Virus record (IMG/VR): IMGVR_UViG_2526164693_000018
Origin: a virus
Taxonomy: Duplodnaviria > Heunggongvirae > Uroviricota > Caudoviricetes
Length of the DNA: 5,399 bases
Reading direction: 5' to 3' (one strand)
Shown piece after piece: positions 1,092 to 5,399 of this stretch. The notes under the pieces were generated by a model. That model was not told the DNA's origin and did no database searches. It worked only from the letters and a program-made list of their open reading frames with translations. The translations under genes were made by a program, and so were the position numbers. The stretch's first letter is position 1; every line of letters starts with the position of its first letter.

Positions 1092-1808
<717 letters not shown>

Positions 1809-2182
1809 AGAGGATAGATGGAGTTTAATGGCCATGAGTATCAAGCGGTCAAAAAGAAGTTCATCTATTCATTGAAAGCATAAGGCCATCTGAGTATATC
1901 CGTAATGATCTGGATATTGTCTATAACATCAATGACCGGACGATAGATATCGGTGAGCAGCGTCCTGTATGGCAGGGTGAGGCAGGTGAAAAAACGTCCT
2001 GCCATCAACAAGAATCAAGTGCATCCGCTCTCTGGACAGATGGAAAATTTATTGGATGCAAAAAGATATGAAATAACACCTGTATAGCACGGAGCTTTCT
2101 CTGACCGATGCACTTGAAGTTGTTAGGGCTGACCCAGCCTGCTGTTTCTTTAGGTAAGAGAAAAGAGATTTAGGAGATGAAA

Positions 2183-2209
2183 GGTCGCAGAGGTGCGGCC
2201 TTTTTTATT
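2183..2209 (+). terminator. Intrinsic terminator-like hairpin: stem ggtcgca / tgcggcc (one G-U pair), loop gagg, followed by T6
   Basis: 7-bp stem at 2183-2189 and 2194-2200, then tttttt at 2201-2206. Plus-strand orientation, about 375 nt downstream of the cI stop. Confidence 0.6.
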
Positions 2210-2248
2210 GAGAGTGGATCTTGAACGGAAATTCTCAAGACTTGAGTC

Positions 2249-2277
2249 TTGCATGCAAATCAATTCCTGGATAAACT
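2249..2277 (+). promoter_or_regulatory. Candidate sigma70 promoter for the 173-aa ORF (-35 ttgcat 2249-2254, 17-nt spacer, -10 taaact 2272-2277)
   Basis: Hexamers with canonical spacing about 33 nt upstream of the ORF start, overlapped and preceded by dyad-symmetric motifs (ctcaagacttgag 2234-2246, ttgcatgcaa 2249-2258). Confidence 0.35.
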
Positions 2278-2309
2278 CGATCTGAGTCAATAACTTAGAG
2301 AGAGAGCAA

Positions 2310-2831
2310 ATGGCAAAGTCAAACGTTAGCGTGCAGGCATTCAAGGACTTCCTTGAAGAGCTTATGTCGCTGAACATAATGAAGGAGGCCACCGCTCGAA
2401 ATTTAAAAAACTCATCCGCTCGCCTCTTAACGGTAGTCCAAGAAGAGGAAATGGGTGATGTTACTCAGCTTGATGTGAATGAGCTTGCCGAGCGATACAT
2501 CAACGCAACTGAGCCGAAGCCTAGCGACAGCAGCATTACTGCATATAAAAGCCGCATGGAAAGTGCAATCAAAAAGTTTGTAGCTTTCCAGTCTGGTGAA
2601 GAAATCCCATACACTCCGATTGACAAAGAATCCAGTGAGGAAAAAGATTTGACTGGCGAACCAACAAAAGTCGAAGGCAAGGCTAATGCACTTCATACCT
2701 ATGATCTTCCAGTAGTTCTTCGACCTGAATCAGGGGTTACAGTAACGATTAAAGGCATTCCTAACGATATCACAAACGAAGAAGCCGAACGCATCTCTTC
2801 AATTCTGAAGGTTTACGTTCGGCCTCAATAA
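2310..2831 (+). CDS. Hypothetical protein (173 aa), acidic, no recognised domain; occupies the position of rexA/rexB
   Basis: Longest ORF in the non-lambda segment. Purine-rich stretch gagagagag at 2297-2305 precedes the ATG at 2310. Hydrophilic, net acidic by my count (about 29 D/E against 21 K/R), no obvious transmembrane segment. A promoter-like element lies upstream and a terminator downstream. Confidence 0.6.
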   Translation: MAKSNVSVQAFKDFLEELMSLNIMKEATARNLKNSSARLLTVVQEEEMGDVTQLDVNELAERYINATEPKPSDSSITAYKSRMESAIKKFVAFQSGEEIPYTPIDKESSEEKDLTGEPTKVEGKANALHTYDLPVVLRPESGVTVTIKGIPNDITNEEAERISSILKVYVRPQ

Positions 2832-3004
2832 TGCAAAAGCATTCAGCACAATGTCCAACTCCCCAGTCCGACATTGATGCTGTTTAACCAGAGCCTCCAA
2901 AAGGAGCCCTTGTTAAGGTACACAATATTTGCGATGTAACCTTAGCGCGTCTGGTACATTTTTTCAAGCGGTTGTAGGGCTGCCGCCAATATGAGAAAAC
3001 ACAG

Positions 3005-3127
3005 ATGTCTACATACAATTTGAATGACCAATTCGATCGAGAAGTTCATGTGAATGCCTATGAACGGATAAGGCATGGAAATCTTGAACATGTGTGTGAG
3101 CATTATCGCTCAAGGCCACACCGCTAA
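3005..3127 (+). CDS. Candidate small ORF (40 aa, MSTYNLNDQFDREVHVNAYERIRHGNLEHVCEHYRSRPHR), speculative
   Basis: ATG at 3005, stop taa at 3125-3127, ending 6 nt before a strong intrinsic terminator. Only a weak Shine-Dalgarno (gaga at 2993-2996). Below the length cutoff of the ORF track. The region could instead be a 3'UTR or sRNA. Confidence 0.25.
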   Translation: MSTYNLNDQFDREVHVNAYERIRHGNLEHVCEHYRSRPHR

Positions 3128-3132
3128 TCATC

Positions 3133-3161
3133 AACCCGGCCTCCATGCCGGGTTTTCTTTT
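3133..3161 (+). terminator. Strong intrinsic terminator: stem aacccggc / gccgggtt, loop ctccat, followed by ttctttt
   Basis: 8-bp GC-rich perfect stem (3133-3140 and 3147-3154) with a T-rich tail on the plus strand. The reverse-strand tail is less U-rich, so it is mainly unidirectional. Confidence 0.75.
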
Positions 3162-3341
3162 CCTCTCGCCCAAAAAAACACATAACCAATTGTATTTATT
3201 GGAAAATAAATAGATACAACTCACTAAACAACGCAATTCTGATCTCTCCTTACATCGCCGAGGCAATACACCCACGCTAAAAAACAATACTATTAAATAC
3301 AAAGCGTTGTAAAAAAACGCCCCGTTTTAGAACAAATTGTA

Positions 3342-3370
3342 TTGACCAAGTGAAGTACATATCGTACTAT
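3342..3370 (+). promoter_or_regulatory. Candidate pL-equivalent promoter (-35 ttgacc 3342-3347, 17-nt spacer, -10 tactat 3365-3370)
   Basis: Good -35 and moderate -10 with 17-bp spacing, about 45 nt upstream of a boxA-like element and 190 nt upstream of the N-like gene. A 5-bp-arm dyad agtac-N5-gtact (3354-3368) overlaps the spacer and -10. No lambda-type 17-bp OL operators are visible. Confidence 0.4.
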
Positions 3371-3415
3371 TTAACCATCAGCAGGACGCTGGAAGCCAAA
3401 TGGAACAGACTGGCA

Positions 3416-3461
3416 GGCTCTTTAAACAACGTCGACTCTCGACTACGTGGCTGAAAAGCCA
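3416..3461 (+). promoter_or_regulatory. Candidate nutL: boxA-like ggctctttaaacaa (3416-3429) and boxB-like hairpin tggct-gaaa-agcca (3448-3461)
   Basis: gctctttaa matches the boxA consensus (CGCTCTTTA; closer to the rrn-type TGCTCTTTAACAA). Downstream there is a 5-bp stem with a GAAA loop resembling a boxB hairpin. A second short hairpin gtcga-ctc-tcgac (3431-3443) lies between them. Located in the leader of the N-like gene. Confidence 0.5.
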
Positions 3462-3559
3462 GATCACCCAACCACATAAGCTGTGGGATGCAATGCCGAA
3501 GCAACCGTCTCAGGAGGAGCTTCGAGATTGCATCGCCAAAGTTTATTCGGGAGGAATCT

Positions 3560-3832
3560 ATGTCCAGAAAAACAGAATTTAAAGGCACCGCAGCTTCTCG
3601 CCGTAGAGCTCGTCGCGCAAACCTGCAAAGTCAGGAGGCGATTAGCTCCGACAAACTACACAGGCCAACCCCATCACGAGTGGTCTTACAATGCAAACGC
3701 AAACCAGCAATGAGAGCAGAAGTAATAACACTGACAACGTTGACCAGAAAATATGAAGGCTCAACTTGTCTTCCAAATGTAGCTCTTTACGCGGCAGGCT
3801 ACCGTAAATCCAAACAACTGACAGCAAGATGA
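3560..3832 (+). CDS. N: N-family transcription antiterminator (90 aa), P22 gp24 / phi21 N-like rather than lambda N
   Basis: Start chosen at the internal ATG 3560, preceded by gggagg at 3549-3554 (5-nt spacer). N-terminal arginine-rich motif GTAASRRRARRANLQ, typical of N-protein ARMs. The C-terminus LPNVALYAAGYRKSKQLTAR resembles the P22 gene 24 product as I recall it. Lies downstream of the candidate pL and nutL. Confidence 0.75.
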   Translation: MSRKTEFKGTAASRRRARRANLQSQEAISSDKLHRPTPSRVVLQCKRKPAMRAEVITLTTLTRKYEGSTCLPNVALYAAGYRKSKQLTAR

Positions 3833-3890
3833 CTTGTGTTGGTCGCCAGAAAATGAAATTAGGCAGCAAACCACTTATTTGAGGTGATAT

Positions 3891-4142
3891 ATGGAATTTC
3901 ATGAAAGTGCGATTTGTGATTTTCGCGCTAACGCAAATTCAGTAAAACCACAGCCAATTGCAGTTCTTTTTAAAACAATGGGTGCGTGGGCTGTTTTATG
4001 CTTCGCCGCTGACGACACTGACGCAAGAATGGCAATAGGACAAGAGATGGAGATGGACCCGACAAACGATGAATTCATAATTTATGGCGCTCCATCTAAT
4101 TACTTACTTGATACCTGCAACATTTACAACAAGGCTGCCTGA
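3891..4142 (+). CDS. Hypothetical protein (83 aa) in the position occupied by ral in lambda
   Basis: ORF with Shine-Dalgarno gaggtg at 3879-3884, 6 nt before the ATG at 3891. No similarity to lambda Ral that I can recognise except the C-terminal NKAA. Confidence 0.6.
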   Translation: MEFHESAICDFRANANSVKPQPIAVLFKTMGAWAVLCFAADDTDARMAIGQEMEMDPTNDEFIIYGAPSNYLLDTCNIYNKAA

Positions 4143-4278
4143 TGGTGGCCTTTATTTTTGGCATAAACAACAGAATAAACACAGCACTGTGTATTCATTC
4201 CAACGAGTGAATACACGGAGCAATGTCGCTCGTAACTAAACAGGAGCCGACTTGTTCTGATTATTGGAAATCTTCTTT

Positions 4279-4304
4279 GCCCTCCAATGTGAGGGCGATT
4301 TTTT
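4279..4304 (+). terminator. Intrinsic terminator-like hairpin: stem gccctc / gagggc, loop caatgt, followed by ga + T6
   Basis: 6-bp GC-rich stem (4279-4284 and 4291-4296) with tttttt at 4299-4304, located about 20 nt upstream of the 122-aa ORF ribosome-binding site. Analogous in position to tL1 downstream of N. Confidence 0.6.
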
Positions 4305-4324
4305 ATCTGTGAGGATATGAACAG

Positions 4325-4693
4325 ATGTCAAACATCAAAAAATACATCATTGATTACGACTGGAAAGCATCAATAGAAATTGAAATCGACCATGACGTAA
4401 TGACAGAGGAAAAACTTCACCAGATTAATAATTTCTGGTCAGACTCTGAATACCGACTCAATAAACACGGCTCTGTATTAAATGCTGTATTAATCATGCT
4501 GGCGCAACATGCTCTGCTTATAGCAATTTCAAGCGACTTAAATGCATATGGTGTTGTGTGTGAGTTCGACTGGAATGATGGAAATGGTCAGGAAGGATGG
4601 CCTCCAATGGATGGTAGCGAAGGAATAAGAATTACCGATATCGATACATCAGGAATATTTGATTCAGATGATATGACTATCAAAGCCGCCTGA
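4325..4693 (+). CDS. Hypothetical protein (122 aa) with acidic C-terminal region
   Basis: ORF with Shine-Dalgarno gagga at 4311-4315, 9 nt before the ATG at 4325. Asp/Glu-rich C-terminal half (DWNDGNGQEGWPPMDGSEGIRITDIDTSGIFDSDDMT). Not a lambda gene I recognise. Confidence 0.6.
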   Translation: MSNIKKYIIDYDWKASIEIEIDHDVMTEEKLHQINNFWSDSEYRLNKHGSVLNAVLIMLAQHALLIAISSDLNAYGVVCEFDWNDGNGQEGWPPMDGSEGIRITDIDTSGIFDSDDMTIKAA

Positions 4694-4765
4694 GCGCGGC
4701 GTTACCGCATACCAATAACGCTTCACTCGAGGCGTTTTTCGTTATGTATAAATAAGGAGCACACC

Positions 4766-4930
4766 ATGCAATATGCCATTGCAGGGTGGCCTGTTGCTGG
4801 CTGCCCTTCCGAATCTTTACTTGAACGAATCACCCGTAAATTACGTGACGGATGGAAACGCCTTATCGACATACTTAATCAGCCAGGAGTCCCAAAAAAT
4901 GGATCAAACACTTATGGCTATCCAGACTAA
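4766..4930 (+). CDS. cIII: CIII protein (54 aa), FtsH protease inhibitor that stabilises CII
   Basis: Translation [54 protein letters not shown] matches lambda CIII. Shine-Dalgarno aggag at 4755-4759. It is in a different frame from the 4773..5042 track ORF. Confidence 0.92.
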   Translation: MQYAIAGWPVAGCPSESLLERITRKLRDGWKRLIDILNQPGVPKNGSNTYGYPD

Positions 4931-5042
4931 ATTCACTATCGCCACTTTTATTGGCGATGAAAAGATGTTTCGTGAGGCCGTCGACGCTTATAAAAAATGG
5001 ATATTAATACTGAAACTGAGATCAAGCAAAAGCATTCACTAA
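4899..5042 (+). CDS. kil: Kil protein (47 aa), host cell-division inhibitor
   Basis: The internal Met of the 4773..5042 track ORF gives [47 protein letters not shown], matching lambda Kil. Shine-Dalgarno aggag at 4886-4890. Overlaps the cIII 3' end by 32 nt in another frame, as in lambda. Confidence 0.85.
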
Positions 5043-5116
5043 CCCCCTTTCCTGTTTTCCTAATCAGCCTGGCATTTCGCGGGCGATATTTTCACAGCTA
5101 TTTCAGGAGTTCAGCC

Positions 5117-5399
5117 ATGAACGCTTATTACATTCAGGATTGTCTTGAGGCTCAGAGCTGGGCGCGTTACTACCAGCAGATCGCCCGTGAAGAGAAAGAG
5201 GCAGAACTGGCAGACGACATGGGAAAAGGTCTGCCCCAGCACCTGTTTGAATCACTCTGCATCGATCATTTGCAACGCCACGGGGCCAGCAAAAAAGCCA
5301 TTACCCGTGCGTTTGATGACGATGTTGAGTTTCAGGAGCGCATGGCAGAACACATCCGGTACATGGTTGAAACCATTGCTCACCACCAGGTTGATATTG
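5117..5399 (+). CDS. ea10: Ea10-like early protein, N-terminal 94 codons; runs off the right edge of the window
   Basis: Translation [94 protein letters not shown] closely resembles lambda Ea10 from memory. Shine-Dalgarno aggag at 5105-5109. No stop in the window. Confidence 0.75.

Follow-up and report, generated by a model that had tools for sequence, protein, structure and literature searches.

Introduction

The interval between cI and N in lambdoid phages houses accessory genes, or morons: lambda carries rexAB there, co-transcribed with cI, and other morons of this slot, such as 933W Stk and BTP1 BstA, are exclusion genes like rexAB. We analyzed a 5,399-nucleotide (nt) stretch of DNA from a virus of the Caudoviricetes (IMG/VR record IMGVR_UViG_2526164693_000018), hereafter the window, in which this slot holds an open reading frame (ORF) of 173 amino acids (aa). 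The gene, here called ECs1184, lies in the immunity region of the Shiga toxin 2 (Stx2) prophage of E. coli O157:H7 Sakai and of many other Stx1 and Stx2 phages. We find that it encodes a protein with a predicted integrase-type core-binding (CB) domain, and that two overlooked partners, a structured leader RNA and a 40-aa ORF, lie directly behind it. We propose, with a probability of about 0.35, that ECs1184 is an antitoxin-like, nucleic-acid-binding regulator or neutralizer of its own cassette.

A precedent for such a protein is FliZ of E. coli and Salmonella, a global repressor and abundant nucleoid-associated protein, in which a CB-like domain without a catalytic domain acts as a sequence-specific DNA-binding repressor (PMC3367168). 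For ECs1184 itself, Mondal et al. (2016) reported that neither this gene (as ORF23) nor ECs1180 (as ORF21) yielded to deletion in MG1655 lysogenic for Sp5, judged the loss of ORF23/ORF21 lethal, and proposed a role in stable lysogeny (PMC5155283). These were the only two early-region genes to resist deletion in that systematic knockout study. Our analysis supplies a fold, a family of several hundred clusters, and the two partners, which are relevant to any deletion experiment. An addiction or exclusion role of the cassette would have consequences for how stably Shiga-toxin prophages are maintained and how they spread; should the RNA act as a regulatory switch, it would represent a new RNA family. 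ECs1184 would also add a second example, after FliZ, of an integrase DNA-binding domain recruited for regulation.

ECs1184 is a conserved gene of Shiga toxin phages

2310-2831, plus strand: 173-aa ORF, ATG to stop (H0093, ECs1184, Sp5 ORF23, Nil2 ORF22, PHROG 2602)

Related phages label this gene H0093, ORF b63, ORF22 or ECs_1184 and annotate it in every case as hypothetical, which would suit a spurious or decaying frame. Against this, residues 1-173 match positions 1-173 of the 173 in PHROG 2602 (function unknown) with an E-value of 3.5e-102; there are 44 close clusters in Enterobacterales, and with clustering at 50% identity an exhaustive profile search recovered 659 representatives, of which 244 have E <= 1e-10; almost all are 160-200 aa long and match end to end. 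The start position is kept across the alignment, and conservation extends over the full length down to about 23% identity, across phyla. A proteome-wide TRAPP screen for RNA association in E. coli O157 Sakai assigned ECs1184 a false discovery rate of 0.065 (PMC7618764), which we take to imply that the protein was detected. The gene sits in the immunity region, outside structural and replication modules. ECs1184 is a real, conserved Shiga-toxin-phage gene and no chance frame, and we consider it negligibly probable that the ORF is spurious or in decay, or that it encodes a structural or replication protein.

An earlier note, made from the letters of the window, had described an acidic protein with 29 D/E against 21 K/R, and a recount gave exactly these numbers (isoelectric point (pI) 4.85, grand average of hydropathy -0.48, no Cys, one His, no Trp). 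Its further statements are borne out as well: there is no membrane helix (the highest Kyte-Doolittle mean over 19 residues is 0.72), no Cys-rich or His-rich metal motif (the residues form no cluster), and, on inspection by eye, no Walker-type motif, the closest string, GEPTKVEGKA, being wrongly spaced. On these features we rejected a membrane protein, an ATPase, a nuclease and a metal-cluster protein. A Rex homologue is ruled out by the lack of a membrane segment and of any PADLOC, Pfam or PHROG match to Rex proteins, in line with the note's view that the protein is unlike RexB.

The profile search that the note had proposed returned nothing above threshold from Pfam, NCBIfam or PADLOC for the 173-aa protein, its distant relatives, its C-terminal module or the small ORFs, and PHROGs returned families of unknown function only, PHROG 2602 at full length among them. 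Searches of the PDB by sequence, with the full profile and with a profile of the C-terminal module, gave chance-level matches only (an H2B chain, SNAREs and an RRM 'LP.DITEEE' echo). The note's finding of no recognizable motif thus holds for sequence libraries; at the level of the fold it does not, as described next.

A predicted core-binding fold coupled to a novel module

2310-2609, plus strand: N-terminal domain, aa 1-100; four predicted helices (8-21, 26-40, 56-66, 73-94), core-binding/SAM-like fold
2610-2693, plus strand: predicted disordered linker, aa 101-128; acidic in the window protein, variable in length and sequence
2694-2828, plus strand: C-terminal module, aa 129-173; predicted beta-hairpin (130-138, 143-151) and helix (156-168)

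The family alignment divides the protein into a conserved N-terminal part of 100 aa, a variable linker, and a very conserved C-terminal part of 45 aa. AlphaFold2, run from this alignment, places four helices in the N-terminal domain, with a predicted local distance difference test (pLDDT) score of about 90 over aa 31-90; conserved residues of this domain include T28, R30, N31, Y79, R82 and F90. The SAM families are the commonest sub-threshold Pfam matches over 77 members (best E 3.6e-4; the window protein against Phage_int_SAM_1, E 0.047), and a Mesorhizobium member is labelled a CB-domain protein in UniRef, while no Pfam match of the family reaches its curated cut-off. The model, together with this weak but consistent sequence support, indicates that the N-terminal domain has the integrase-type CB fold. 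There is no Phage_integrase match in Pfam, and the protein stops at aa 173 after the 45-aa hairpin-helix module; as no catalytic domain (R-K-H-R-H/W-Y) follows the CB domain, ECs1184 is not a recombinase.

The linker is indel-rich in the alignment, and pLDDT falls below 50 for aa 102-128. The C-terminal module carries the family signature PhiPhiPhiR.G..V.I.GPhiP.DLT..EA.(R/K)I and, modelled alone from 71 sequences, is predicted as a beta-hairpin plus helix with a pLDDT of 94.3. We found no significant structural or sequence relative of this module, which is a novel, confidently predicted domain. PHROG 36396 (63 positions) matches the C-terminal module alone (aa 128-168, window 2694-2813, E 1.9e-5), which suggests that stand-alone versions of the module exist in phages.

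The modelled architecture is compatible with a FliZ-like DNA-binding repressor. Homology to FliZ is not supported: hhalign of a 77-sequence profile against E. coli FliZ gave a probability of 1.3% and an E-value of 0.039, which is not significant. The stretch aligned is the CB-like region of both FliZ and the ECs1184 family.

Charge and distribution of the family

The family ranges from enterobacterial prophages to Alphaproteobacteria and Planctomycetes, and its distribution is sporadic and accessory. Copies in Serratia (54% identity) and Morganellaceae (73%) are flanked by an S24 repressor gene and N and share the orientation of the repressor, even though their modules for repressor, cro, N and replication differ. 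The surroundings of some more divergent viral contigs, judged from unannotated ORF listings, are unlike the cI-N region. Members at 23-28% identity (Mesorhizobium, Devosia, a planctomycete and a marine metagenome-assembled genome (MAG)) are stand-alone chromosomal genes amid housekeeping genes; further members adjoin a DpnI gene and a tRNA, or unrelated small ORFs, and one adjoins a Panacea-domain gene.

The acidity described in the earlier note is true of this protein and of its clade, but it is not a property of the family. Each of the 43 members of the enterobacterial clade is acidic, with a median pI of 4.87 and a linker charge of -4. The remaining 182 members, by contrast, have a median pI of 9.1, and 163 of them carry net-positive linkers; the linker charge is -3 in the window protein against a median of +4 outside the enterobacterial clade. 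The prophage clade is thus the branch with inverted charge in a mostly basic family.

These features bear on an alternative in which ECs1184 is a FliZ-like DNA-binding regulator of the nucleoid-associated type, global or specific to the prophage, that places its CB domain on chromosomal or prophage promoter DNA and aids lysogeny or reprograms the host, the RNA and small ORF being cargo. A CB fold without a catalytic domain, the FliZ precedent, and the existence of stand-alone chromosomal members with basic linkers as in nucleoid proteins, some lacking a small ORF, would all fit, as would the suggestion of Mondal et al. that ORF23 is needed for stable lysogeny (PMC5155283). The gene adjoins repressors of differing immunity types, however, which makes it an unlikely reader of immunity-specific operators; the enterobacterial clade is net acidic and has lost the basic linker; its members are tightly linked to the RNA and small ORF; and homology to FliZ cannot be demonstrated. 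We regard this alternative as on balance unlikely.

Charge inversion confined to the prophage clade, and a CB fold detached from its catalytic domain, could also point to a decoy or inhibitor, as the earlier note had suggested. A CB mimic would titrate a tyrosine recombinase, such as phage Int or XerC/D, or else the DNA site of that enzyme; alternatively, the acidic linker would mimic DNA toward a DNA-binding host or phage protein. Blocked excision could then stabilize lysogeny. With 28 aa and a net charge of -3, however, the acidic linker is short; it is also poorly conserved and, unlike structured DNA mimics, predicted to be disordered, and the remaining family is basic; a block of Int or Xer would leave the lethality of the deletion unexplained, and there is no co-variation with integrase type, since the loci carry differing integrases. 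A decoy role is therefore very unlikely in our estimation.

ECs1184 heads an insulated cassette

2179-2210, plus strand: intrinsic terminator at the 5' end of the cassette; AAAGGTCGCAGAGGTGCGGCCTTT hairpin and T-run
2236-2258: overlapping palindromes across the predicted -35 element; CAAGACT/AGTCTTG at 2236-2251 and TTGCATGCAA at 2249-2258
2249-2277, plus strand: predicted cassette promoter; TTGCAT, 17 nt, TAAACT
2832-3004, plus strand: leader RNA of class 2, 173 nt, by fold and model-fitted alignment
3005-3127, plus strand: ORF40 (H0092), 40 aa, MSTYNLNDQFDREVHVNAYERIRHGNLEHVCEHYRSRPHR; His-rich with one Cys, type A, phrog_21154
3133-3160, plus strand: intrinsic terminator at the 3' end of the cassette; AACCCGGCCTCCATGCCGGGTT and T-run, upstream of the Sakai-type oL/pL

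In the order terminator, promoter-like element, gene, 173-nt leader RNA, 40-aa ORF and terminator, the cassette occupies the slot between cI and oL/pL on the cI strand, the same slot as lambda rexAB. The upstream terminator (-15.9 kcal/mol, z -4.6; 0 of 200 shuffles as stable) has a hairpin sequence that is identical, and in the same place, in the Serratia (L005) and Proteus (L007) cassettes. A terminator-like site at 2126-2140 was rejected, as it is no more stable than shuffles (z 0.26). The downstream terminator (-14.3 kcal/mol, z -5.0) is annotated as such in AP000422, and equivalents lie 3' of the small ORF in loci L039 and L077, Serratia and Proteus. With a strong terminator between cI and the cassette, the unit is insulated from the cI (pRM) transcript, unlike lambda rexAB. 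The two genes are co-oriented between the terminators, and no terminator-like hairpin with a T-run was seen in the 173-nt spacer between them.

At the aligned position of the predicted promoter, Proteus has TTGCAA-17-TAGAAT and Serratia TTGACT-17-AAAAAT, and a leader of the form GATCTG..TCAATAACTTAGAGAGA is conserved 3' of the promoter-like element in E. coli, Serratia and Proteus. The palindrome core GAGTCTTGCA is kept in the alignment of the three genera, and we consider the palindromes at 2236-2258 a candidate operator.

Several O157 genomes carry IS1203/IS3-family insertions at 2277-2285 (L207, which is NZ_CP015831.1; hits H31-H36), between the predicted -10 element and the ATG, with both the 173-aa gene and the small ORF intact. 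Separating the whole cassette from its predicted promoter is thus tolerated, a situation that differs from the loss of gene 1 alone.

The cassette also bears on a third alternative, in which ECs1184 belongs to an anti-phage exclusion system and corresponds in position to RexAB, 933W Stk or BstA. As the sensor or regulatory partner, it would detect a component of an infecting phage and release or activate the small protein or the RNA. Such a role overlaps the sensor partner of the earlier note and would suit a slot that houses exclusion genes in other lambdoid phages, an insulated moron architecture, and a sporadic, mobile distribution with single members beside a DpnI gene and a Panacea-domain gene. 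It is at odds with the lack of a PADLOC match for any component and of an effector-type domain, and with the several chromosomal members amid housekeeping genes, so that we consider it quite unlikely. The interpretation in the earlier note is partly supported: the protein is non-enzymatic, and decoy and sensor are kept as lesser rivals of the regulator or neutralizer that we favor.

A structured leader RNA between the two genes

2844-2855/2870-2882: helix P1
2887-2894/2947-2955: helix P2
2895-2898/2903-2906: helix P2a
2912-2923/2933-2946: helix P4
2968-2975/2979-2986: helix P5
2905-2910 (AGCCCU) with 2976-2981 (AGGGCU): candidate pseudoknot

The spacer between ECs1184 and ORF40 is a structured RNA that had not been catalogued before. 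Its strongest support comes from class 1, the commoner of two classes in related loci (17 sequences of about 155 nt), which shows strong covariation. Pairing holds in 90.2% of the cells of the class 1 alignment, compared with 81.6% in shuffles, of which 0 of 500 attain the observed figure, and with 37-48% if the partners are slid; 24 of the 36 pairs have changes on both sides. Many of the pairs are G-U, which points to an RNA on the sense strand. A class 1 pseudoknot between the P2/P3 junction and the P5 loop finds support in cognate duplex energies of -8.4 kcal/mol, against -5.1 kcal/mol for non-cognate combinations; the observed mean is reached in 0 of 5000 permutations, and at least six complementary variants occur. 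A Shine-Dalgarno sequence and the AUG of the small ORF follow directly 3' of the class 1 RNA.

The leader RNA of the window belongs to class 2. Its spacer has a minimum free energy (MFE) of -52.2 kcal/mol (z -3.5), and five other variants, folded independently, give the same topology with different helix sequences. When the sequences are aligned by fitting to the model, the paired fraction of cells is 87.7% (26-45% when slid), and 10 pairs are changed on both sides; given the few sequences and an alignment fitted to the structure, support for class 2 is moderate. A pattern scan for class 2 spacers yielded mostly chance matches, and a local nhmmer filter left about 9 distinct sequences. The covariance model of class 1 gave no match to the window spacer with default filters, and with filters off one of 5.6 bits (E 0.08) to the 3' part only. 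Our claim for the two classes is accordingly one of common position and topology, and not of homology.

Rfam 15 holds no match for the leader at 2832-3004 (the window, searched at E <= 1, yields the cIII thermometer at 4753-4811 alone), and nine related loci gave no Rfam match at the gathering threshold. The locus is likewise absent from the Hfq-CRAC paper on small RNAs of O157 Sakai and its supplements.

Two further observations concern parts of the class 2 RNA. Across loci that are otherwise near-identical (the window with L039, L045, L072 and L077), the apical 14 nt of P1 (2856-2869) occur either as CAACTCCCCAGTCC or as the reverse complement of this sequence (GGACTGGGGAGTTG). The difference is a small inversion inside a palindromic stem, with the loop switching between CCCC and GGGG. 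When the spacers of the window and of L039 are folded to their MFE, a U-rich linker (UUUUUUCA) pairs with UGAGAAAA (2959-2966 and 2992-2999). The latter holds the Shine-Dalgarno-like GAGA of ORF40, which hints at translational occlusion in competition with other conformations.

Small ORFs of three types

Between the window and locus L077, ORF40 differs by 14 synonymous and 4 non-synonymous codons, and its conservation in this comparison exceeds that of gene 1 and of the spacer; the codon pattern shows ORF40 to be under purifying selection. Homologues of ORF40 form 3 clusters only, as gene callers skip such small ORFs. Most related loci examined, including those of the marine MAG and the planctomycete, have an ORF of 40-61 aa that starts +148 to +195 nt past the stop codon, so that the arrangement of gene, RNA and small ORF recurs from prophages to a planctomycete.

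The small ORFs fall into three types: A, that of the window; B (phrog_33859), a profile that also takes in the small ORFs of the MAG (E 6e-18) and of the planctomycete (E 1e-7); and C, which has a CxxC...CxC pattern and a weak, sub-threshold hint of a treble-clef zinc finger. Type C is found behind both RNA classes (loci L006, L069 and L073 versus L037, L046 and L072), which, together with near-identical C-terminal modules preceding all three types, indicates that gene 1, RNA and small ORF reassort separately.

A proposed function for the cassette

On the reading that we favor, the ORF would be the first gene of an autonomous moron cassette in the rexAB slot, and ECs1184 a non-catalytic nucleic-acid-binding adaptor built of a CB domain, a flexible linker and a beta-hairpin-helix module. 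The target of the CB domain would be one of two nucleic acids, the palindromic DNA that spans the cassette promoter or the structured leader RNA that lies right after the stop codon, and the C-terminal module would provide self-association or a partner contact. The His/Cys-rich 40-aa protein would be co-transcribed and held in check, and the cassette would act in lysogens as an addiction or exclusion module of the toxin-antitoxin (TA) kind. We favor this reading for the CB fold, the antitoxin-like order of domains, the insulated two-gene unit with a leader RNA by the Shine-Dalgarno sequence, the mobile distribution and the published failure to delete the gene; the binding target of ECs1184, the control of ORF40, the harm ORF40 would do and expression from the cassette's own promoter in lysogens are inferred.

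Several points weigh against it. The N-terminal domain has a net charge of -4, which is unusual for a DNA binder, and in a PNK assay the signal of over-expressed ECs1184 was not above that of the sfGFP control (2025 TRAPP paper, PMC7618764), a result that speaks for weak or no general RNA binding. The failed deletion could be technical or reflect prophage induction, and ORF21 (ECs1180) failed too. The predicted promoter is a weak match (7/12) that a consensus scan did not report. PADLOC and Pfam recognized no toxin or defense component in the cassette, and the type A (ORF40), B and C partners have no match in either library and belong to no known toxin family. That near-identical C-terminal modules of gene 1 stand before small ORFs of three dissimilar types speaks against a specific protein-protein neutralization through this module, and, unlike in type II TA systems, a 173-nt structured RNA parts the two genes. 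Alphaproteobacterial and some other distant members lack both the RNA and the A, B and C small ORFs, so that the protein must have a function independent of these partners.

Taken more broadly, the cassette may be an undescribed module of three components: an integrase-derived, catalytically dead CB-fold protein with a new hairpin-helix domain, a pseudoknotted RNA of ~150-175 nt, and an interchangeable Cys/His-rich protein of 40-61 aa. It could represent a new RNA-containing class of addiction, defense or translational-control system, in which the leader RNA is a switch, responsive to a protein or a ligand, that gates the small protein; we put this forward tentatively.

Genomic setting of the window

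Minus strand: cII and cro, with oR (1021-1084) next in order
1095-1808, plus strand: cI
1809-2178: 370 nt 3' of cI, decayed DUF3024 gene
3295-3370: oL/pL, Sakai-type, 3' of the 40-aa ORF
3' of oL/pL: N, P22/933W-type (Pfam N_peptide, E 3e-32)
3891-4142: ECs1180 (Sp5 ORF21), 83 aa, directly 3' of N; PHROG 2471
After N, in this order: ea10/DUF2528, cIII, kil and gam
4753-4811: lambda cIII thermoregulator RNA (Rfam RF01804, 88.5 bits), on the 5' side of the cIII start and extending over it

As a lambdoid immunity region, the window runs opposite to the lambda map. Over positions 1398-5399 it shares 99.4% identity with VT2-Sakai (Sp5), the Morioka Stx1 and Stx2-II phages, Nil2, 2851 and the PA series. 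The whole is mosaic: the left 1400 nt (the end of O, cII, cro, oR and the N-terminal half of cI) are 99.4% phage lambda, the remainder 99.4% of the Sp5/VT2-Sakai type, a combination found in no phage record and no complete E. coli genome. Lambda operator half-sites occur at oR only, whereas at pL the operators are the ones that the Sakai record annotates; a lambda-type cI DNA-binding domain therefore faces a non-lambda oL.

The 370 nt 3' of cI look empty; this remnant is 81% identical to the intact DUF3024 genes of Stx2 phage 86 and AU6Stx1, and prophages of Proteus and Providencia have an intact DUF3024 gene in the corresponding place, after cI and before the cassette. ECs1180 has no Pfam, NCBIfam or PADLOC match.

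Comparison with known systems

ECs1184 shares its CB (SAM-like) domain with the tyrosine recombinases (lambda Int, XerC/D, IntI and Cre; Pfam Phage_int_SAM_1 to 6). In contrast to these enzymes, it lacks a catalytic domain, and behind its N-terminal CB domain come a disordered linker and then an unrelated module of 45 aa. Among non-catalytic prophage regulators of recombinase fold, MrpR (YopR) of SPbeta and SroF of phi3T (PDB 8a0a, 9rd5), both from Bacillus phages, still possess the recombinase fold with both of its domains, at about 320 aa, and are not accompanied by an RNA or a small ORF. FliZ resembles ECs1184 in being small (183 aa) and non-catalytic, with a CB-like functional part, but in FliZ this region is C-terminal, there is neither a beta-hairpin-helix module nor an RNA or small ORF partner, and the gene is a member of the flagellar regulon rather than of a mobile cassette.

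With type II TA systems the cassette has in common that the first of two genes encodes a DNA-binding-type N-terminal domain and a disordered region, a sporadic occurrence on mobile elements, and the reported lethality of first-gene deletion. It differs from them in its downstream protein, which has only 40-61 aa, lies outside the known toxin families and exists as three types, all encoded after near-identical C-terminal modules. The likeness to lambda RexAB is one of place, in the same slot on the cI strand and upstream of oL/pL. ECs1184 has no sequence or structural similarity to RexAB, Stk or BstA and is neither a membrane protein nor a kinase, and where rexAB shares the cI transcript, the ECs1184 cassette has a strong terminator after cI and then a promoter-like element of its own.
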